Shown here piece by piece: positions 1,930 through 54,373 of a DNA stretch of 64,000 nt. Where the stretch lies: NCBI RefSeq assembly GCF_044324875.1, contig NZ_CP172185.1; one strand, given 5' to 3'. This DNA is from Escherichia coli (GTDB lineage: Bacteria > Pseudomonadota > Gammaproteobacteria > Enterobacterales > Enterobacteriaceae). Both the position numbers and the translations under genes were made by a program. Position 1 is the first letter of the stretch. Every line of letters begins with the position of its first letter. Under the pieces are notes generated by a model. That model did no database searches. It was not told the origin of the DNA and was given only the letters and a program-made list of their open reading frames with translations.

Positions 1930-2050
1930 TGCAAAATGGCATCTGAATCGATCGCAGTTTGGCATTCGAATCGATCATGATTTGGCATCCATCTCCGATC
2001 ACAGTTTGGCATCACAATCGATCACGATTTGGCATGCTTCCGATCATTGA
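1930..2050 (+). repeat. IS21-family left-end multiple terminal repeats
   Basis: Five tandem copies of a ~20-bp unit (TTTGGCAT..CGATCG..GAT variants) between 1930 and 2050; typical IstA binding sites of IS21-family ends. Confidence 0.6.
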
Positions 2051-2131
2051 TTGGCATCCTGCCAGTCACTCCGGGAATTAACTCTTTTCACCACAGTCTC
2101 CATTGCCGTGTTTAAACCAGTGGAGACGTCA

Positions 2132-3697
2132 ATGTCCAGAAAGAGAAAATCCAGGAGCACTATGGAAACCTGTTTTAAGATCCTTCAGCTCAAGTTCGAC
2201 AAGAAGCTGACTAACCGTTGTATCGGACTGACGTTACACATCAGCGCCTCAACCGTTTTTGAGGTTCTTGCCCGCTTCAAAGCCTCTTCTCTGTCATGGC
2301 CATTACCTGCTGATATATCCCATGACACGCTGGAGAAACTCATTTTTCCGCCCAAAGACACCTTTGCATCAGAGCTTGTAATGCCTGACATGTTGTACTT
2401 CGATACGGAAATGAGAAAACCAGGTGTGACGCGGCAACTGTTGTGGATGGAATACAAGGCACAGGCGGGTAACAAAGCGATGGGATACTCGCACTTCTGC
2501 CGTTGCTACCGGGAGTGGAAAAAAACGCGACGTCTCTCCATGCGCCAGGAGCATCGTGCCGGCGAAAAGCTTTTTATCGACTTCTGTGGTCCTACGGTTC
2601 CTGTTATTAATCCGGACACCGGTGAGATACGCCGCGTGGCAATCTTCGTGGCCGTAATGGGGGCGTCCAACTATACCTACGTTGAAGCGTGCGAAGGTCA
2701 GGACATGATGTCATGGTTAAATGCCCACAGCCGTTGCCTGACCTTCCTGGGCGGCGTACCGAAGCTGCTCATCCCCGATAACCTCAGAAGCGCAGTGAAA
2801 AAGGCCGATCGATATGAGCCTGTCATCAACGACAGTTATCAGGCACTGGCTGAGCACTATGGCACGGTTATCATCCCGGCCCGACCACGCAAACCTAAAG
2901 ATAAACCAAAAGCAGAAAACGGCGTCCTCATCGTTGAACGATGGCTTCTTGCCCGCATCCGTAATGAAACCTTCCACACGCTCAGGGCGCTGAATGCGCG
3001 CCTTAGGGAGTTACTGACAGACATGAATAACCGGCCAATGAAGGGGTACGGCAATCAAACCCGTGCAGAACGCTTCCGCATACTGGATGCGCCAGCACTC
3101 TCTCCGCTGCCTCTGGCACCTTATGAATACACGGAATACAAAGCTGTGAAGGTTGGCCCTGACTACCACGTTGAATATGCCCGTCACTGGTACTCCGTTC
3201 CACACGAACTGGTCGGTCAGCGTCTGTCACTGAAGGCGGGGCAGTCGGTGGTACAGCTCTGGCACAAGGGGCAGTGTGTGGCGCAACATCCGCGCAGCAC
3301 ACATGAATATAAACACACAACCAATCCGCTTCACATGCCAGAGCGCCACCGGCAGCACGGGACATGGACACCGGAACGCCTGATCGAGCAGGGAAAACGT
3401 ACGGGCCCGTCCACAGGCCGGGTGGTTGAATCCATGCTGAAGGCAAAACCCCATCCGGAACTGGCTTATCGTGCAGTTCTGGGGCTGCTGGCACTTCAGA
3501 AAAAATACGGCCCGGAACGGCTGGAAAAGGCCTGTTACGTTGCCCTGCACTATAACGCCCCTGACAGACGCTTTATCGACAATCTGCTGCGTCACCATCG
3601 GGAGAACCTGGAGCTTCCATTATCCCGCCAGGGCGAACAACATCCGGCATATGCTTCAGAGCATGAAAACCTGCGTGGTCCGGGCTACTACCACTGA
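2132..3697 (+). CDS. istA: IS21-family transposase IstA
   Basis: ORF track 2051..3697; long ORF begins inside the terminal repeats, so the GGAGACG-preceded ATG at 2132 is the more likely start; N-terminal HTH then DDE-type catalytic region; followed by istB. Confidence 0.85.
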   Translation: MSRKRKSRSTMETCFKILQLKFDKKLTNRCIGLTLHISASTVFEVLARFKASSLSWPLPADISHDTLEKLIFPPKDTFASELVMPDMLYFDTEMRKPGVTRQLLWMEYKAQAGNKAMGYSHFCRCYREWKKTRRLSMRQEHRAGEKLFIDFCGPTVPVINPDTGEIRRVAIFVAVMGASNYTYVEACEGQDMMSWLNAHSRCLTFLGGVPKLLIPDNLRSAVKKADRYEPVINDSYQALAEHYGTVIIPARPRKPKDKPKAENGVLIVERWLLARIRNETFHTLRALNARLRELLTDMNNRPMKGYGNQTRAERFRILDAPALSPLPLAPYEYTEYKAVKVGPDYHVEYARHWYSVPHELVGQRLSLKAGQSVVQLWHKGQCVAQHPRSTHEYKHTTNPLHMPERHRQHGTWTPERLIEQGKRTGPSTGRVVESMLKAKPHPELAYRAVLGLLALQKKYGPERLEKACYVALHYNAPDRRFIDNLLRHHRENLELPLSRQGEQHPAYASEHENLRGPGYYH

Positions 3698-3713
3698 CAG
3701 AAGGAACAACAGT

Positions 3714-4469
3714 ATGAGTGATAACCTGTTAAACAAACTGACCCAACTGAAACTCCCGGCGATGGCCGGGAGCCTGATACGGCAGCGGGAAACGCCTCAG
3801 ACCTACGACGAACTGTCGTTCGAGGAAAGGCTGACGCTGCTGGTTGATGACGAGCTTCTGAGCAGGGAAAACAGCCGTGTGGCACGGTTGAGAAAAAATG
3901 CCGGCCTGAAATACCAGGCAACACCGGAAGGGCTGCGCTATCCGGCCTCAAGAGGTCTGCGGGCTGAACAGATGAGAGAACTGCTGAACGGCCACTACAT
4001 AACCCACAGGAAAAACCTGCTGATAACCGGTCCGACAGGATGTGGCAAGAGCTGGATAGCCAATGCGCTGGGCGAACAGGCATGTCGACAGAAACACAGC
4101 GTCCGGTACTGTAGAACCGGGCGATTACTGGAACAACTGGCTCAGGGACGTGTTGATGGCAGCTGGCTGAAATATCTGAAACAGTTGCAAAAAATACAGG
4201 TTCTAATCCTGGACGATCTGGGGCTGGAACAGTTAAGTAACGCCCAGTGTAATGACCTTCTGGAGCTCATAGAGGATCGTTACGGACAAAGCAGCACGAT
4301 AGTGGTAAGCCAGTTCCCGGTAGATAAATGGCATGGTCTGATGGAGAACCCAACAACAGCAGATGCCATCCTGGACAGACTGGTACATAACTCACACCGA
4401 GTGGTCCTTCAGGGAGAGTCACTGAGGAAAAATCCCCCGGTAGTGGAAAGCAGCGAAAAAACGCGTTAA
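3714..4469 (+). CDS. istB: IS21-family helper ATPase IstB
   Basis: Walker A GPTGCGKS, Walker B LILDDLG; start at ATG 3714 (MSDNLLNKL) with SD AAGGAA, not the longer in-frame track ORF 3471..4469. Confidence 0.9.
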   Translation: MSDNLLNKLTQLKLPAMAGSLIRQRETPQTYDELSFEERLTLLVDDELLSRENSRVARLRKNAGLKYQATPEGLRYPASRGLRAEQMRELLNGHYITHRKNLLITGPTGCGKSWIANALGEQACRQKHSVRYCRTGRLLEQLAQGRVDGSWLKYLKQLQKIQVLILDDLGLEQLSNAQCNDLLELIEDRYGQSSTIVVSQFPVDKWHGLMENPTTADAILDRLVHNSHRVVLQGESLRKNPPVVESSEKTR

Positions 4470-4759
4470 AAAGCGGTAGAAAAAGTTAAGTTCCCGGTTG
4501 ATCGAATGGATGCGAATCGCTGATCGGACTTCGATGCCAATCCGTGATCGAATAGAGCGGAATACGCAGGGAACCACACAGGGTATGGACAAACATAATA
4601 ACAATAACAGGATGAAAATATTGAATAAAAAATAAAAACCGAGACATCATCATTTGCAGTAATAGCCACCTCCTTACCGAAAAGTGTGAGTTGCCGGACA
4701 TTTTTTAAACGCATGATAAGGTCTGATGATACAGTCACCCTGCAACCAGGAGGTACATC

Positions 4760-5011
4760 ATGCGTATACGTGTTTTTGGTTACCGGCACTGCCCTTCAGT
4801 CCATCGCATCATGCATCACGCAACGCGAATCCCCGATGAAATGGAACCGGATGTTGTGTTTATTGATGTCGCGAAGCACAGTGTGACGCTGCGGGATATG
4901 GCTGACCGTGCAGGCTGCCCGGTGGATAACTTCCCGTGTGTGTTTGTTGATGATGTGTATCTGGAGCCCCTTCCACCAGAGCCGGGCAAACCGCACTTTA
5001 CATACTGCTGA
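4760..5011 (+). CDS. small thioredoxin/glutaredoxin-fold-like protein (83 aa)
   Basis: Strong SD AGGAGG 7 nt upstream; pattern MRIRVFGY-HCPS ... FPCVFVDDVYL resembles the glutaredoxin/NrdH layout but with the CxxC replaced by HCPS; function uncertain. Confidence 0.35.
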   Translation: MRIRVFGYRHCPSVHRIMHHATRIPDEMEPDVVFIDVAKHSVTLRDMADRAGCPVDNFPCVFVDDVYLEPLPPEPGKPHFTYC

Positions 5012-6198: not shown

Positions 6199-6372
6199 AC
6201 TGACCTGGGGGGAATGCGTGGTACCCTGCTGTACGGACTAATCGGAACCTGTCGGTTGAACGGTATCGATCCGGAAGCGTATCTGCGCCATATCCTGAAC
6301 GTTCTACCGGAATGGCCTTCCTGCATGGTTGATGAACTCCTGCCATGGAATATGGTGCTCCCATTGGGGTAA
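6199..6372 (+). pseudogene. IS66-family transposase (TnpC) C-terminal remnant
   Basis: Frame reads ...[50 protein letters not shown], matching the conserved C-terminus of the intact TnpC at 8167..9618; GTAAGCG-type end just downstream. Confidence 0.6.
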
Positions 6373-6491
6373 GCGTCAATACGGCGTTCGCTTAACTTAA
6401 CACTTACTTTCAAAGCCTGATATCTGTCCTACGCTTTTCCTCAATACCACATCGCCAGCAGGAAACAACCTAATGCCTGTGTTGGGGTCTG

Positions 6492-6516
6492 AATTACTAA
6501 TGATAATCATTTGCAT
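6492..6516 (+). promoter_or_regulatory. Fur box-like operator upstream of sitA
   Basis: AATTACTAATGATAATCATTTGCATT contains the AATGATAATCATT core of the Fur consensus. Confidence 0.55.
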
Positions 6517-6536
6517 TGTGTATAGCTTATGCTATA

Positions 6537-6558
6537 AAACATAGCCGTTGCTATGTTT
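6537..6558 (+). promoter_or_regulatory. MntR box upstream of sitA
   Basis: Palindrome AAACATAGC-CGTT-GCTATGTTT matches the MntR operator consensus; an adjacent second palindrome TATAGC-TTAT-GCTATA lies at 6521-6536. Confidence 0.6.
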
Positions 6559-6590
6559 GTTCTAATTTTACTCACTATAGGTACTGAATT

Positions 6591-7505
6591 ATGCACTCAA
6601 TAAAAAAAGTAACCATGCTCCTGGGGTGCCTCGCCCTCACCTGCTCGATAGCATTTCAGGCGAGTGCAACTGAAAAATTCAAGGTCATTACAACATTTAC
6701 CATCATCGCAGATATGGCCAAAAACGTGGCTGGAGATGCTGCAGAAGTCTCATCCATAACCAGGCCCGGTGCAGAAATTCATGAGTATCAGCCTACCCCT
6801 GGCGATATTAAACGTGCGCAGGGGGCACAACTGATTCTCGCCAACGGTATGAATCTGGAATTGTGGTTCCAGCGCTTTTACCAGCATCTCAGTGGTGTTC
6901 CAGAAGTGATTGTCTCTTCGGGTGTGACGCCAGTAGGGATCACCGAAGGCCCCTACGAGGGAAAACCTAACCCTCATGCCTGGATGTCGCCAGATAATGC
7001 TTTGATTTACGTCGATAATATTCGTGATGCGTTGATAAAATACGATCCGGCAAATGCAAAAACATACCAACGTAATGCCGATACTTATAAAGCCAAGATT
7101 ACCCAAACCCTTGCCCCCCTGCGTAAGCAGATTGCTGAACTCCCTGAGAATAAAAGATGGATGGTCACCAGTGAAGGGGCTTTTTCTTATCTCGCACGCG
7201 ATTTGGGGCTAAAAGAGCTTTATCTGTGGCCGATAAATGCCGATCAACAAGGAACACCCCAGCAGGTACGTAAAGTGGTTGATATAGTGAAGAAAAATAA
7301 TATCCCAGCGGTATTTAGTGAGAGTACGGTTTCCGATAAACCAGCGCGTCAGGTTGCGCGTGAAACCGGCGCACACTACGGCGGTGTGCTCTATGTCGAT
7401 TCCCTGAGCACAGAAAACGGCCCGGTACCTACGTATATCGACCTTCTGAAGGTTACTACCAGTACGCTGGTGCAGGGAATTAAAGCCGGGAAAAGGGAGA
7501 AGTAA
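6591..7505 (+). CDS. sitA: Mn/Fe ABC transporter periplasmic substrate-binding protein SitA
   Basis: 304 aa with signal peptide; cluster-9 metal-binding SBP fold; followed by a sitB start overlapping the stop (TAATG); Fur and MntR boxes upstream. Confidence 0.85.
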   Translation: MHSIKKVTMLLGCLALTCSIAFQASATEKFKVITTFTIIADMAKNVAGDAAEVSSITRPGAEIHEYQPTPGDIKRAQGAQLILANGMNLELWFQRFYQHLSGVPEVIVSSGVTPVGITEGPYEGKPNPHAWMSPDNALIYVDNIRDALIKYDPANAKTYQRNADTYKAKITQTLAPLRKQIAELPENKRWMVTSEGAFSYLARDLGLKELYLWPINADQQGTPQQVRKVVDIVKKNNIPAVFSESTVSDKPARQVARETGAHYGGVLYVDSLSTENGPVPTYIDLLKVTTSTLVQGIKAGKREK

Positions 7506-7640
7506 TGATGCAATCTGCGGGTATTGTCGTTAATGGCGTTACTGTCACCTAGCGAAACGGGCAGAAAGCACTGCGCGATGCATCCTTCACAGTACCAGGC
7601 GGATCTATTGCCGCTCTGCTTGGGGTAAACGGTTCCGGTG
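7505..7640 (+). pseudogene. sitB: sitB 5-prime fragment (ABC ATPase) with premature stop
   Basis: MMQSAGIVVNGVTVT then TAG, then ...ALRDASFTVPGGSIAALLGVNGSG; homology ends inside the Walker A motif at about 7640; sitCD absent. Confidence 0.65.
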
Positions 7641-7986
7641 AAATCGTCTTGACACGTTTCTGGGCTCGTCATCAGCGGTTGTTGCGAATGATCGCCGCCC
7701 TGCGATGGTTGATTTATTTTATTGCGCCCCGGCGTCTGCCTTGCCAGGTACCGGAGGCGGGCTCTGAAGGACTGAGTAGGGTGAGCGCGTCAGGCCGCGA
7801 AGTACTGACACGGGAGTTTGTGGCAGGCAGTGAAGTCCTGACCAGGGTAAGGGAGGCGCTGACGTGCAGGTCCTGACTGTCAGCCAGGCGCATGGTGACT
7901 GACTTTCTCAATAACCCGCTGTCAGGCGCTCAACGCCCGACAGCAGGCCATGGCCCGGTGTGCAAAGACCTGACGGCAGGTGTTGT

Positions 7987-8127
7987 GTCACCCGGAGAAG
8001 GTAAATCCCTCAAGAGGCAGCAGCTCAGCCAGTCGGTCCTCAGGCCACTCCGGCAGGCGCGTCAGTACGTCCGTCAGCCAGGCATGTGGCTCCAGACCAT
8101 TACGCTTTGCTGTTTCCAGAAGACTCA
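7987..8127 (-). pseudogene. second IS66-family TnpC C-terminal fragment
   Basis: Minus frame MSLLETAKRNGLEPHAWLTDVLTRLPEWPEDRLAELLPLEGFTFSG* parallels the TnpC C-terminus; abuts the end of the complete IS66 element. Confidence 0.5.
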
Positions 8128-8166
8128 TTGTAAGCGTACAGCGAGGGCCGTATTGACGGGGATGTG

Positions 8167-9728
8167 TTATTCAGCTGGCAGTGCTATGCGCCACGGAAGC
8201 AGTTCGCTGACCCGGTTGACCGGCCAGTCTGCTATGACGCCAAGCACATGGCGAAGGTAGCTTTCTGGATCCACGTCATTCAGTTTGCACGTCCCTATCA
8301 GGCTGTACAGTAGCGCTCCCCGCTCACCACCATGGCCAGAGCCGAAGAACAGGAAGTTTTTACGACCCAGACTTACCGCCCGCAGGGCATTTTCAGCGAT
8401 GTTGTTGTCGATTTCCACCCAGCCATCGTTCGCATAGTACGTCAGTGCCGGCCACTGGTTAAGTGCGTACGCGAACGCCTTCGCCAACTCTGAGTGTCGC
8501 GACAGGGTCTTCATCTTTTCACGCAACCAGCTTTCCAGGGATTTCAACAGCGGTTTCGTTTTTCGCTGACGTTCAGCAAGCCGCTGCTCTGCCGGCATTC
8601 CCCTTATATCCGCCTCTATGGCGTACAACTGACCGATCTGCTCCAGGGCTTCTTCCGTCAGTGCTGACGGGATGCGGACGTGCACATCGTGGATCTTTCG
8701 GCGGGCATGAGCCCAGCAGGCAGCTTCCGTTATCCCACCATTGCGATACAGCTCGTTGAACCCGGCGTACGCATCCGCTTGCAGCACACCGCTGAAGCAA
8801 GCAAGATGAGTCTGCGGATGGATGCCTTTTCTGTCCGGGCTGTAAGCGAACCACACTGCAGGTGCCAACGCTGACCCGGCATTGCGGTCATCACGAACAT
8901 ACACCCACAGCCGGCCCGTCCGGGTTTTACCGCTCCCCGGCTCCAGCACTTTCACCGGGGTATCGTCCGTGTGCTGTTTGCTGCTCTCCATCACGTAGCG
9001 GTTCAGCGCATCGTGCAGGGGACTGAGTCGTTCTGCGGTCATCGCCACCCACCGGACCAGCGTGTTTCGGCTCAGTTCCACACCCTGGCGGCTGAAGATG
9101 ACGGACTGACGATGCAGCGGGGTATGGTCACAGTATTTACTCACCAGGATGCGGGCCAGCAGGCCCGCACCGGCCACACTGCGGGTCAGAGGTTTCGGGA
9201 GGAGTGGGGCCTGGACTATCACATCGCAGCGGCTGCAGGCCAGCTTCGGGCGCACCGTTTCGATGACCTTAAAGGCGCTGCGGATTATCTCCAGTTGCTC
9301 TGAGACGGTTTCACTCATCACCTTCAGGTCGCCGCCGCATTTCGGGCAGACAGTCACTGTCGGGGTGATGCGCCGGGTTTCACGTGGCAGGTCTGCCGGC
9401 AGTTTCTGACGACGGGAGCGGCGTGCAGGCCGGTCCTGTGGGGCGACCGCCACCGGGGGCTCTGCCTGCTCAACCGTACTGACAGTGGGCTCATCGTCCT
9501 GCAGACAGCGTTTTGCCGCTGCAAGACGGTTTTCCAGCTCAGCCAGCCGCTTCTCTGCCTGGCGGATTTTATTTTCCAGTTTATTGCGGCTTTTCTCTGA
9601 ACTCTGCCCGAACAGCATCCGCCGCAGCTTATCAACTTATCAAGCTGTGCCTTCAGCCGTTCGATTTCCTGTTCGTAGTCGGCAACCTGTCCGGCGTACT
9701 GGCGCAGCCGGGCCTGCTGCTTTTTCAT
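8167..9728 (-). pseudogene. tnpC: IS66 transposase TnpC, frameshifted
   Basis: N-terminal coiled-coil part (track ORF 9354..9728) and catalytic part (8167..9618) are in different frames; tandem 8-bp duplication CTTATCAA at 9628-9643 explains the shift. Confidence 0.75.
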
Positions 9729-9837
9729 GGTAACATTTAGCTGTTACACAGCAACCTGCTGCTGACGCAACAGGGCTTTCAGCTGGTCGATATTATCAGG
9801 AAGCGGGATATTTTTCATCCTGCCCAGGTAAAGGGAT

Positions 9838-10185
9838 TCAGATCCGCAGACTATTACTTTTCGACCTTCCCGGTTGCATCCAGACTATACCCTCCAGCAG
9901 CATGGCAAGCTGTGCCGGGGTCAGATACACCTTTCCCTCCCGGGCGACCGGCCAGATGAACGTTCCCCGTTCAAGTCTTTTCATATAGATGCAGAGCCCT
10001 CCGCTGTCTGCCCACAGGAGTTTTACCAGCCTGCCCCTGCGTCCCCGGAAGATGAAGAGATGGCCGGAGATCGGGTCATCCTTCAGGGTGTTCTGGACCT
10101 TTGCGGCCAGACCGTTGAAGCCGTTTCTCATGTCGGTGATGCCGGCCACGAGCCAGATACGGCTGCCAGCCGGAAGCGTAATCAT
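9838..10185 (-). CDS. tnpB: IS66 Orf2 (TnpB)
   Basis: 115 aa, near-identical to the second IS66 TnpB at 52659..53006. Confidence 0.85.
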   Translation of the reverse strand: MITLPAGSRIWLVAGITDMRNGFNGLAAKVQNTLKDDPISGHLFIFRGRRGRLVKLLWADSGGLCIYMKRLERGTFIWPVAREGKVYLTPAQLAMLLEGIVWMQPGRSKSNSLRI

Positions 10186-19821: not shown

Positions 19822-21369
19822 TTATGCCGCGTTCAGGGCGTTGTGGTTGATAGCCATCATCGTCATCAGCCGTTCTTCGTTAGCGTCGTCACCGTGGATC
19901 TCGCCAGTTAACCGGCCTTCACTAAGGGTGATGATCCGGTCAGACACCGCCATCACTTCAGGCAGATCGGAGGAGATCACGATCACCGCCACGCCCTTTT
20001 TCGCCATATCAAACAGCACCTGGTGCACTTCCGATTTGGTTCCAACGTCGATGCCACGCGTCGGCTCATCGACAATCAACACCCGTGGATTGAGCGCCAT
20101 GCAGCGCGCGAGGATAACTTTCTGCTGGTTGCCGCCAGAGAGCTTACGCACCTCTTGCGTGCTGTTGACCATTTTGATCTGCAGCGCCTGGCGGTAGGAC
20201 TCAATCAGGTCGTCCTCTTTGCGGGTATTCACAAACCAGCGCCACTGCAACAGCGAGGAGAGGCAGGAGAGCGACAGGTTGTAGCGAATCGACAGACCCA
20301 GCACCGCCCCCTCTTTTTTGCGATCTTCCGGCACCAGCGCCAGCCCTTGCTCCAGCGCATAAAGTGGGTCACGCGGCTGGTACGGCACGCCGTCCAGTTC
20401 AAAGCTGCCGGTGGTAAAGGCGTCGGCGCCAAACAGGCAGCGCGCTACCTCAGTACGACCAGCCCCCACCAGCCCAGCGATACCCAGAACTTCCCCAGCA
20501 TGGACGTGAAAACTGATGTCATGCAGGGCGATGCCGTGTGGATCCAGCGGCGGTTTTTCCCGGCTTAACCCCTTCACCGACAAACGGACAGGTTTGTCTT
20601 CATGGTGGGTTTCGCTGGCAGGGCGGCGGTTAAAGGCCACATCACGCCCTACCATCAGGCGGATCAACTGCTCTACGTTCGTCTCCGTCACTGCGCCGGT
20701 GCCGGTGAAACGGCCATCCTGGAAAACGGTGAAACGATCGCAAAGCTGGAAAACTTCATGCAGACGGTGAGTAACGTAAATAATGCTCACGCCGCGGTTT
20801 TTAAGCTCCCGCACCACGCGGTGCAGGCTTTCCACCTCGCTGTCACTCAGGGCGGCGGAGGGTTCATCCATGATGATCAGCCTGGCATTGAGGGTCAGCG
20901 CCCGGGCAATCTCCACCATCTGCTGCTGGGCCACGCTCAGACGGGCGACTGGCGTGGTGGGTGCGACATTCAGTTGCAGATAATCGAGAATCACCTGCGC
21001 TTCCTGATTGACCGCTTTTTCGTCGACGATCAGGTTACGTTTACGCGGTTCGCGTCCGAGAAACATGTTTTCCGCAACGGTCATATTGGGCAGCAGGTTG
21101 AATTCCTGATAGATGGTGATAATGCCCTTGTTCTGCCGTTCTACCGGGGAGTCGTCCACCGGCAGCGTTTCGCCATTGAACCAGATCTCCCCGCGCGTTT
21201 GTGGCTGTGCGCCCGCGAGTGCCTTCAACAGCGTGGATTTCCCAGCGCCGTTTTCGCCCAGCAAAGCGTGAATTTCACCCGTGCCGACGGTGAGCTGGGC
21301 GCTGCTCAGCGCCCATACGCCGGAAAAGCTTTTTGCCAGGTCGGTTACTTTCAGTAAGGGTTGCGACAT
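19822..21369 (-). CDS. sugar ABC transporter ATP-binding protein, duplicated NBD
   Basis: 515 aa, two nucleotide-binding domains (GENGAGKST Walker A; second degenerate), RbsA-like. Confidence 0.85.
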   Translation of the reverse strand: MSQPLLKVTDLAKSFSGVWALSSAQLTVGTGEIHALLGENGAGKSTLLKALAGAQPQTRGEIWFNGETLPVDDSPVERQNKGIITIYQEFNLLPNMTVAENMFLGREPRKRNLIVDEKAVNQEAQVILDYLQLNVAPTTPVARLSVAQQQMVEIARALTLNARLIIMDEPSAALSDSEVESLHRVVRELKNRGVSIIYVTHRLHEVFQLCDRFTVFQDGRFTGTGAVTETNVEQLIRLMVGRDVAFNRRPASETHHEDKPVRLSVKGLSREKPPLDPHGIALHDISFHVHAGEVLGIAGLVGAGRTEVARCLFGADAFTTGSFELDGVPYQPRDPLYALEQGLALVPEDRKKEGAVLGLSIRYNLSLSCLSSLLQWRWFVNTRKEDDLIESYRQALQIKMVNSTQEVRKLSGGNQQKVILARCMALNPRVLIVDEPTRGIDVGTKSEVHQVLFDMAKKGVAVIVISSDLPEVMAVSDRIITLSEGRLTGEIHGDDANEERLMTMMAINHNALNAA

Positions 21370-29857: not shown

Positions 29858-32237
<2,380 letters not shown>

Positions 32238-32242
32238 GCAAA

Positions 32243-32707
32243 CACATCAATGATGAACGCCACATAGACGACCCCCTCCCATGTGCTGACGTAAGTAAAA
32301 TCAGCCACCCACAACTGGTCAGGACGTTCTGCCACAAACTGACGGTTTACGCGGTCGCCTGCGGCAACGGCTTTCCGGCTGACGGTAGTGCGGACCTTTT
32401 TACCCCGGAGAACACCGGCAAGTCCCATAACCGCCATGAGGCGCGCCACTGTACATCTGGCTACCCTGATTCCTTCCCGTAACAACTGACGCCAGACTTT
32501 ACGCACACCGTATACCTGATGATTCCCATCGTATACGCGCAGTATCTCTTTCTTCAGCCAGTCATCGCGCTGCGCACGGGCACTGCGTTTATAAGGATGA
32601 TGTCGCTGTTGCTGACAGTGGTAATACGTTGACGGGGCAATATGTAGTTCACTGCATACCGGTCCGACCCCGTACAGCTTACGCAGCTTATCCAGCAGTG
32701 GCATCAC
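32243..32707 (-). pseudogene. IS629 orfB, N-terminal part
   Basis: Identical to OrfB residues 1-154 of copy 2, then runs into the IS100 end. Confidence 0.8.
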
Positions 32708-33030
32708 TTTTTCCAGAGGCGGTCGAACTCCGCCTTCGCAAAATAAGCGGAAGCCTGGCGAAGGATATCGTTACTGCGGCGCAGTTCACGATTTTCACGT
32801 TCCAGCTCTTTCAGACGCTGACGTTCAGCGGTGGTGAGCCCGCCATCACCGCCTCCGGTATCCCGCTCATGCTGGCGTACCCAGACACGCAGAGTCTCCG
32901 GTGTACAGCCAATCTTTGGGGCAATGGAACAAATTGCCGCCCACTGTGAGTCATATTCGCCCTGACTTTCCAGAACCATACGAATCGCCCTCTGACGGAC
33001 TTCGGGGGAAAAACGAGTATTTTTAGTCAT
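32704..33030 (-). CDS. IS629 OrfA
   Basis: 108 aa, identical to copy 2 OrfA (38056..38382). Confidence 0.85.
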
Positions 33031-33083
33031 TCTGTTTACCTCTTTCTCAGGGAGTTTAGTCTCCAGGATTCCCGGGGCGGTTC

Positions 33084-33448
33084 ACGGGAGCCAGGACCTT
33101 AAAATAACTACTTACAGGCTGTTGTATTCCAGCTGGTAATACGATTTCTGCACTGTCAACAAACGGAATGCCGTCTTTAAAGTCTGCCCTGTCATTAGCC
33201 TCATTGAGAATGAAATCGACTAGAACAGGCTCTTCGTTCACCAGTCCTTGATGGTTAAGAAATTTGACGTAAAGTTTAAGTGTATTGCTGACGGGATAAA
33301 TTTTTCCAAGAGCATTGGTAACAACATGGGCTGCGGTGAGAATCTTTTGCTGCTGACCATTATCGAAACCAAACGCAGTTGCTTCGAGATGGCTACTAAA
33401 ATGAGGATCATTGCTTACATAGATTTTACAAACGTAGTTTTCAAACAT
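33084..33448 (-). pseudogene. S1 (trypsin-like) protease-like gene, 3-prime end cut by IS629
   Basis: N-terminal 120 aa with catalytic-His motif ILTAAHVV; reading frame continues into the IS629 inverted repeat. Confidence 0.4.
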
Positions 33449-53006: not shown

Positions 53007-53601
53007 CCCGTTGTAAAGTGAGGATATGGACACCTCACTTGCTCATGAGAACGCCCGCCTGCGGGCACTGTTGCAGACGCAACAGGACACCATCCGCCAG
53101 ATGGCTGAATACAACCGCCTGCTCTCACAGCGGGTGGCGGCTTATGCTTCCGAAATCAACCGGCTGAAGGCGCTGGTTGCGAAACTGCAACGTATGCAGT
53201 TCGGTAAAAGCTCAGAAAAACTTCGTGCAAAAACCGAACGGCAGATACAGGAAGCACAGGAGCGAATCAGCGCACTTCAGGAAGAAATGGCGGAAACGCT
53301 GGGTGAGCAATATGACCCGGTACTGCCATCCGCCCTGCGCCAGTCTTCAGCCCGTAAACCGTTACCGGCCTCACTTCCCCGTGAAACCCGGGTTATCCGG
53401 CCGGAAGAGGAATGCTGTCCTGCCTGTGGTGGTGAACTCAGTTCTCTGGGATGTGATGTGTCAGAGCAACTGGAGCTTATCAGCAGCGCCTTTAAGGTTA
53501 TCTGCGTATTCCGCTCTATTCGATCACGGATTGGCATCGAAGTCCGATCAGCGATTCGCATCCATTCGATCAACCGGGAACTTAACTTTTTCTACCGCTT
53601 T

Positions 53602-54357
53602 TTAACGCGTTTTTTCGCTGCTTTCCACTACCGGGGGATTTTTCCTCAGTGACTCTCCCTGAAGGACCACTCGGTGTGAGTTATGTACCAGTCTGTCCAG
53701 GATGGCATCTGCTGTTGTTGGGTTCTCCATCAGACCATGCCATTTATCTACCGGGAACTGGCTTACCACTATCGTGCTGCTTTGTCCGTAACGATCCTCT
53801 ATGAGCTCCAGAAGGTCATTACACTGGGCGTTACTTAACTGTTCCAGCCCCAGATCGTCCAGGATTAGAACCTGTATTTTTTGCAACTGTTTCAGATATT
53901 TCAGCCAGCTGCCATCAACACGTCCCTGAGCCAGTTGTTCCAGTAATCGCCCGGTTCTACAGTACCGGACGCTGTGTTTCTGTCGACATGCCTGTTCGCC
54001 CAGCGCATTGGCTATCCAGCTCTTGCCACATCCTGTCGGACCGGTTATCAGCAGGTTTTTCCTGTGGGTTATGTAGTGGCCGTTCAGCAGTTCTCTCATC
54101 TGTTCAGCCCGCAGACCTCTTGAGGCCGGATAGCGCAGCCCTTCCGGTGTTGCCTGGTATTTCAGGCCGGCATTTTTTCTCAACCGTGCCACACGGCTGT
54201 TTTCCCTGCTCAGAAGCTCGTCATCAACCAGCAGCGTCAGCCTTTCCTCGAACGACAGTTCGTCGTAGGTCTGAGGCGTTTCCCGCTGCCGTATCAGGCT
54301 CCCGGCCATCGCCGGGAGTTTCAGTTGGGTCAGTTTGTTTAACAGGTTATCACTCAT
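53602..54357 (-). CDS. istB: IS21-family IstB
   Basis: Identical to 3714..4469. Confidence 0.9.
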   Translation of the reverse strand: MSDNLLNKLTQLKLPAMAGSLIRQRETPQTYDELSFEERLTLLVDDELLSRENSRVARLRKNAGLKYQATPEGLRYPASRGLRAEQMRELLNGHYITHRKNLLITGPTGCGKSWIANALGEQACRQKHSVRYCRTGRLLEQLAQGRVDGSWLKYLKQLQKIQVLILDDLGLEQLSNAQCNDLLELIEDRYGQSSTIVVSQFPVDKWHGLMENPTTADAILDRLVHNSHRVVLQGESLRKNPPVVESSEKTR

Positions 54358-54373
54358 ACTGTTGTTCCTTCTG

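Follow-up and report, generated by a model that had tools for sequence, protein, structure and literature searches.

How should an intact sitA gene be understood when the genes for its transporter have been lost? SitABCD, known from Salmonella SPI-1, Shigella, and APEC and equivalent to YfeABCD of Yersinia, is an ABC importer of Mn2+ and Fe2+ with Fur and MntR as its repressors. Both regulators are documented to repress sitABCD, and mntH as well, in Salmonella (PMC8970401). The stretch of E. coli DNA analyzed here, 64 kb in its entirety and called the window below, contains a full-length sitA orthologue with the operator layout of an intact sitABCD and with the same overlap of the sitA stop and the sitB start. 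Unlike in an intact operon, the ATPase gene breaks off at codon 45 and has TAG in place of codon 16, and both permease genes are gone, so that no transporter is encoded. Such a locus may be in decay, or its binding protein may work with a permease encoded elsewhere. We propose that the locus is, with high probability, the surviving 5′ end of a second, island-borne sitABCD operon truncated by IS66, and likely a recent, effectively neutral, and redundant remnant. The features on which the argument turns are collected in Table 1.

Table 1. Positions of the sit remnant, its predicted operators, and the adjoining IS66-family sequences in the window.
Feature	Position	Strand	Details
Older IS66-family 3′ end remnant	6199–6395	+	Directly upstream of the sit promoter
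Fur-box-like operator (predicted)	6495–6513		15/19 match to GATAATGATAATCATTATC; core 6498–6511 exact
MntR operator palindrome (predicted)	6537–6558		AAACATAGC-N4-GCTATGTTT; same in five sit lineages
sitA, periplasmic Mn/Fe-binding protein	6591–7505	+	304 aa, intact, uninterrupted ORF; signal-peptide-like N-terminus
sitB stub	7505–7638	+	44 codons plus 2 nt; TAG for Trp16 (TGG); ends in the Gly45 codon
IS66-family outer (3′) end remnant	7643–8130	−	Abuts the sitB breakpoint
Near-complete IS66-family element	8131–10677	−	Inside the remnant; ends GTAAGCG...CGCTTAC

The sitA gene was predicted to be intact, and the full 304-codon reading frame is indeed present. Comparison of the encoded protein with the Yersinia YfeA structure in the PDB (5uxs) gives E = 5e-124. 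Residues H64, H129, E195, and D270 of SitA align with residues 76, 141, 207, and 282 of YfeA, which we take to be the metal ligands of the YfeA structures. The protein matches the Pfam ZnuA family (PF01297), and by alignment it is a cluster A-I (ZnuA/TroA-fold) binding protein with a His-His-Glu-Asp metal site; a search of NCBIfam with SitA returned no model at or above the cutoff. The same protein, WP_112047416.1, is found without change in nine genomes and in every carrier examined, as discussed below, and it is 98.4% identical to the SitA proteins of intact E. coli island copies. Only two substitutions, K58R and N101S, are specific to the orphan SitA, and both are conservative. They must be older than the truncation, because contig CAUANH010000033.1, which has an intact sitBCD, encodes the same SitA. 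It is probable that SitA is still exported and still binds metal. Import of that metal by way of its own locus cannot occur.

The region upstream of sitA is preserved as well. In a motif scan of the 64 kb, the MntR site was found as a perfect palindrome, AAACATAGC-CGTT-GCTATGTTT, with 0 mismatches. It is the sole match in the window, where 0.06 matches are expected at three or fewer mismatches, in full agreement with the original prediction. The assignment was verified by comparison with the region upstream of K-12 mntH, in which a palindrome just 5′ of the start codon has half-sites identical to those of the window. In K-12, a Fur-like box lies farther upstream than the MntR-type palindrome. 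The palindrome is identical across all five aligned sit lineages. A “terminator-like” flag that the sigma-70 scan placed on the palindrome was rejected as an artefact of its symmetry. The Fur site had been described as near-consensus. That description holds for the 14-mer core, TAATGATAATCATT, which is exact and for which the window scan gives an expectation of 0 by chance, but it does not hold for the full 19-mer, which by manual count agrees with the consensus at 15 of 19 positions; with this level of agreement, the 19-mer was missed by a scan that allowed three mismatches. The core is kept, nearly identical, in four intact sit operons from three lineages. The two operators are thus features of the sitA promoter at the level of sequence only. 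A scan upstream of sitA for a strict sigma-70 consensus found no promoter; conservation with the intact operons suggests that the promoter is active. With both the Fur and the MntR operators untouched, transcription of sitA at low Fe and Mn is probably preserved.

Immediately upstream of this promoter is a remnant of an IS66-family 3′ end. It includes an ORF for a transposase C-terminus at 6214–6372, and its end sequence, GTAAGCG, begins at 6371. At the matching position in relatives, PGAP reports an incomplete transposase domain-containing protein. Since the same remnant also precedes the intact operon of CFSAN061770, it is older than the sitB truncation.

The sitB gene begins at 7505, overlapping the sitA stop, and reads MMQSAGIVVNGVTVT before it meets a TAG at 7550–7552, after 15 codons. 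Its match to intact sitB runs through GGTTCCGG (7631–7638) and breaks off within codon 45, a glycine of the Walker A sequence GVNGSGKS, and sitB stops within about 5 bp of the IS end. Both the premature TAG and the loss of homology within Walker A had been proposed for this locus, and both are found as proposed. PGAP annotates the stub as “internal stop; incomplete”. A complete ATP-binding subunit, with Walker A, signature, and Walker B, is absent, as sitB stops within Walker A, and the two ABC-3 family permease genes, sitC and sitD, are absent from the operon. When the window was searched by tblastn with SitA to SitD of an intact relative, SitA and a 51-residue SitB stub were found. SitC and SitD had no match anywhere in the 64 kb, and no further SitB was detected there; the predicted absence of sitCD is thereby upheld. 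A candidate for a hidden distal sit fragment, at 19930–21324, was rejected, as the SitB-like hits are ABC ATPases of only 25–27% identity among the iol genes. The reading frame of the sitB stub is shared by an ORF of the IS66 remnant (7505–7876, plus strand). Where codon 16 of a relative is TGG, gene callers predict a 123-aa chimera of sitB and the IS remnant, and the TAG abolishes this chimera.

What lies past the break had been called IS66 debris. The term suits the end remnant that abuts sitB, but not the near-complete element that follows. The end remnant shares ~79% identity with the 3′ ends of complete IS66-family elements and retains the C-terminal 46 residues of a transposase on the minus strand, at 7988–8128. 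Homology to full IS66-family elements starts at base 3 of a query beginning at 7641. The position of the IS end, near 7643, was set by this start of homology to independent copies and is accurate to a few bases. When the terminal inverted repeats of the remnant type were sought in the full copy of strain C11, only matches of 7–8 bp were obtained.

The element inside the remnant has tnpA (10182–10592), tnpB (9838–10185), and tnpC (8167–9728) in order, the last in two overlapping ORFs, together with terminal inverted repeats. PGAP labels the same element in relatives tnpA, tnpB, and tnpC, with tnpC frameshifted. The three-gene layout and the GTAAGCG termini are those of IS66-family insertion sequences. 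Because tnpC is split, the activity of the element is doubtful. The split tnpC, and the lack of a simple target duplication, set it apart from a simple IS66-family insertion. The flanks of the element have no simple target-site duplication, and its right flank differs from the sequence of uninterrupted relatives. The far flank does not resume the remnant sequence, and therefore the arrival of the second element was coupled to a rearrangement. Four genomes with the truncated locus, ECCNB12-2, LH50-c, CM2, and Br_112, lack the second element, and in these the sequence runs on into more of the tnpC of the first element.

The segment of 1.3 kb that includes the promoter, sitA, the stub, and the junction was recovered at full length from nine genomes, with 99.8–99.9% identity, when 5,426 complete E. 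coli genomes were searched, the nine being counted apart from the window’s own genome. These carriers are mostly isolates from chicken or chicken meat and come from China, Pakistan, the USA, Switzerland, Japan, Brazil, and Viet Nam. Further assemblies beyond the nine have the same breakpoint, and in a collection of assemblies the exact SitA sequence is indexed in 368 blocks. In ~2,350 other genomes, sit is found at 90–99% identity, and the homology stops at the junction. PGAP annotates sitA (WP_112047416.1) followed by a sitB pseudogene in all nine carriers; the loci of strain 135 are KZ312_RS13255 and KZ312_RS13250, respectively. The configuration of the locus is, therefore, already known from RefSeq annotation, and an event of this kind is very common.

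Strain 135 offers the closest comparison. It is 99.95% identical to the window over 15 kb and colinear with it to the window’s end, save for IS differences. At the truncated locus, the DNA is 99.9% identical, and the breakpoint and SitA are the same. The window differs from strain 135 in that position 6896 is T, a synonymous change, that an additional copy of an IS21-family element lies 2 kb before the locus, and that there are private differences at 4957–4981. The last are three changes within 25 bp (G/C, a 1-bp insertion, and G/A) at which the nine relatives agree with each other. They shorten a small ORF (4760–5011), annotated in relatives as thioredoxin-domain or hypothetical, from 97 to 83 aa, and they could be either a real cluster of mutations or a local assembly error.

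Variation among the carriers indicates the order of events. Besides the window, five of the nine complete genomes and two assemblies outside that set have TAG at codon 16 of sitB. The other four of the nine, which are the four genomes named above, have TGG, as do the intact relatives. Since these truncated genomes and the intact relatives alike keep TGG, the truncation came first and the TAG arose later by a G-to-A change. In two assemblies (L026 and L028), the second IS66 element is found together with TGG.

A counterpart of the locus before the truncation is available in contig CAUANH010000033.1. There, downstream of a gene for exactly the same SitA, sitB, sitC, and sitD are all intact and encode 275, 285, and 292 aa, respectively. 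As far as the breakpoint, contig and window are 99.6% identical, and the contig shares the island neighborhood of the window, with genes for an OMP, YebF, BON, and DoxX. This arrangement is the ancestral state of the truncated locus. The proposal that the locus is decaying is borne out by an IS-bounded truncation shared by nine assemblies, by an intact ancestor, and by a secondary TAG in what was already a dead stub. In CFSAN061770 (10784–11641), an island-type sit operon is otherwise intact and its sitD has an internal stop, which is a second, independent decay route of the same redundant island operon.

Is the island copy redundant in the genomes that carry it? The original prediction had raised a second sit system elsewhere in the genome as the point to check, and such a system is found in relatives. 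Strain 135 has a complete, unflagged sitABCD, 106 kb from the remnant and next to uspF-ompN, and HCM-27C-1 also has an intact uspF-linked sitABCD. It follows that “orphan” is a fitting word for the locus and not for the genomes of these two strains. At least two sitA places are present in eight of the nine carrier chromosomes, and the chromosome of strain 135 has a third. In GPEC1040, the orphan is the only sitA of the chromosome (a count for the chromosome only, plasmids not included), and redundancy is therefore not universal. For the window’s own genome, the relatives make a second sit copy likely.

The proteins of the island-type and uspF-type operons are 96.7% (SitA), 96.0% (SitB), 96.8% (SitC), and 90.8% (SitD) identical. 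At this level of identity, the orphan SitA could plausibly dock on the resident permease. A precedent in E. coli is MppA, an orphan binding protein that uses OppBCDF, the permease of its paralogue (PMC10622912). As with MppA, an intact binding-protein gene is found here with no cognate permease at the locus, apart from any permease genes, and in two relatives, strain 135 and HCM-27C-1, a paralogous complete transporter is encoded elsewhere. MppA, whose function has been demonstrated, is a paralogue that diverged long ago and has a substrate of its own. Unlike MppA, the orphan SitA is a very recent product of deletion and is 96.7% identical to the resident protein, and any function it has is hypothetical.

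The pattern of variation in sitA bears on whether the gene is under selection. Within the truncated clade, sitA varies at three sites (6761, 6896, and 7256), and all of the changes are synonymous. From the codon content, three synonymous and no nonsynonymous changes have a neutral P of ~0.011, for n = 3 and with one of the sites homoplasious. The pattern is a hint that the gene may be under some constraint. Among the nine genomes, no variable site at all is found in the adjacent 2 kb, which is for the most part non-coding or in decay, and divergence within the truncated clade is too low for selection to be detected.

Two other explanations need to be weighed against that of a redundant remnant. 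One is that the TAG, or the truncation as a whole, is an artefact of assembly or sequencing, the operon being really intact in the window’s strain. A local assembly error is conceivable in view of the three private differences clustered at 4957–4981, one of them a 1-bp insertion. Against this, nine complete genomes from seven countries, and further assemblies, have one and the same breakpoint, and sitCD are found nowhere in the 64 kb. The TAG, for which a check of read support had been proposed, recurs in independent assemblies, five of them complete genomes and two others, and is therefore real and no sequencing error. The chance that the operon is intact is negligible, and we regard the artefact explanation as effectively refuted.

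The other explanation gives the orphan SitA a role. It would be a selected accessory binding protein that, under Fe or Mn limitation, feeds the SitBCD of the uspF-linked operon or of a ColV-type plasmid and so adds capacity or alters metal preference. The ORF, the metal ligands, and the operators are all intact, as such a role would have it; orphan and resident SitA share 96.7% identity, and two carriers have an intact resident SitBCD; the in-clade changes in sitA are three synonymous to none nonsynonymous; and MppA and OppBCDF provide a precedent in E. coli (PMC10622912). We nevertheless think this role unlikely. A near-identical SitA comes from the resident operon in any case, so that any benefit would be one of dosage only, and the substitutions K58R and N101S are conservative and older than the truncation. 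The clade has diverged too little to show selection, with the adjacent non-coding DNA equally conserved, and the genes of the surrounding island are decaying, many being frameshifted or partial CDSs. GPEC1040, moreover, is without another chromosomal sitA and so probably has no chromosomal sit permease for the orphan to feed. It is tempting to go further and propose that the island SitA, its sitBCD lost, has been kept by selection in the poultry lineage, where, as an additional periplasmic Mn/Fe binding protein under Fur and MntR control, it would feed uspF-linked or plasmid SitBCD or buffer periplasmic metal. This we consider very unlikely; were it true, a newly born orphan binding protein would have been caught at the moment of its origin.

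We favor, then, the redundant remnant, with the following history. In a redundant island-borne copy of sitABCD, an IS66-family element mediated loss of the distal operon, that is, the rest of sitB, sitC, and sitD. The distal genes may have been removed by insertion and then deletion, by recombination between IS copies, or by a one-step IS-mediated adjacent deletion. A single breakpoint has come down to a group of E. coli most of which are associated with poultry. In sublineages, a second IS66-family element later came to lie inside the first, the downstream sequence was rearranged, and codon 16 changed from TGG to TAG. Any contribution by SitA would need a paralogous SitBCD, such as those beside uspF in strain 135 and HCM-27C-1.

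The truncated operon is a textbook case of erosion, by insertion sequences, of a redundant virulence-associated operon in a mosaic island, and it has little general biological weight. It has practical consequences. Typing by gene presence would score the lineage as sitA positive and wrongly credit it with a Sit system at this locus. The shared breakpoint, together with the TGG/TAG and IS66 variants, makes a convenient marker by which one set of poultry E. coli can be recognized as a lineage. Should the orphan SitA prove to have a function, the locus would serve as a dated instance of the origin of an orphan binding protein.

The island in which the remnant lies is large and mosaic, with modules for myo-inositol (iol), tellurite resistance (ter), an S6-peptidase autotransporter, and sodC, and with many partial transposase genes. 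Its position varies among carriers. In strain 135, the island adjoins sapF-ycjD with a tyrosine integrase. In HCM-27C-1, the orphan sitA is 2.4 Mb from uspF. In GPEC1040, the region expected from the strain 135 layout to contain uspF holds ftsY-to-rtcA genes, and the island is elsewhere on the chromosome. The left neighbors are different in LH50-c (cptA and glycosyltransferases). The island module moves or recombines between chromosomal contexts.

Some further observations concern the window itself. A MarR-family regulator gene at 11394–11723, 3′ of the IS66 element, is frameshifted in near-identical relatives and is adjoined by an integrase-core fragment with an internal stop; the damage to these genes is evidence of general decay around the sit remnant. 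By colinearity with a relative (L016), the segment 18570–64000 contains iol genes for myo-inositol catabolism, clustered with a sugar ABC transporter, and the ter cluster in full. It also encodes an AbgT transporter and an autotransporter peptidase of the S6 family (SPATE-type) and has several copies of IS3, IS110, and IS66. Within it, 30284–39311 has extra or rearranged IS copies in comparison with strain 135.

An IS21-family element is present in the window as two inverted copies, 1930–4568 (minus strand) and 53503–56141 (plus strand), and strain 135 has neither at these sites. Both copies are 99.8% identical to an ISSso4-like istAB element of CFSAN061770. The right copy is a simple insertion in the transposase gene of an ISCro1-like IS66 element, with a duplication of GTTATC. 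The left copy has no duplication; it replaces 230 bp and removes the 5′ end of a dolP-like (BON-domain) gene. Lying 49 kb apart, the two inverted copies could mediate inversion of the segment with the sit remnant.

In strain SMS-3-5 (9001–18915), a sit operon whose sitA is 98.9% identical lies beside iutA, iucD, and iucC, together with sodC, amid IS fragments. This sit region and the window’s island have the sodC module in common, which suggests that the SMS-3-5 and window-type islands are built from common ColV-plasmid-like blocks.
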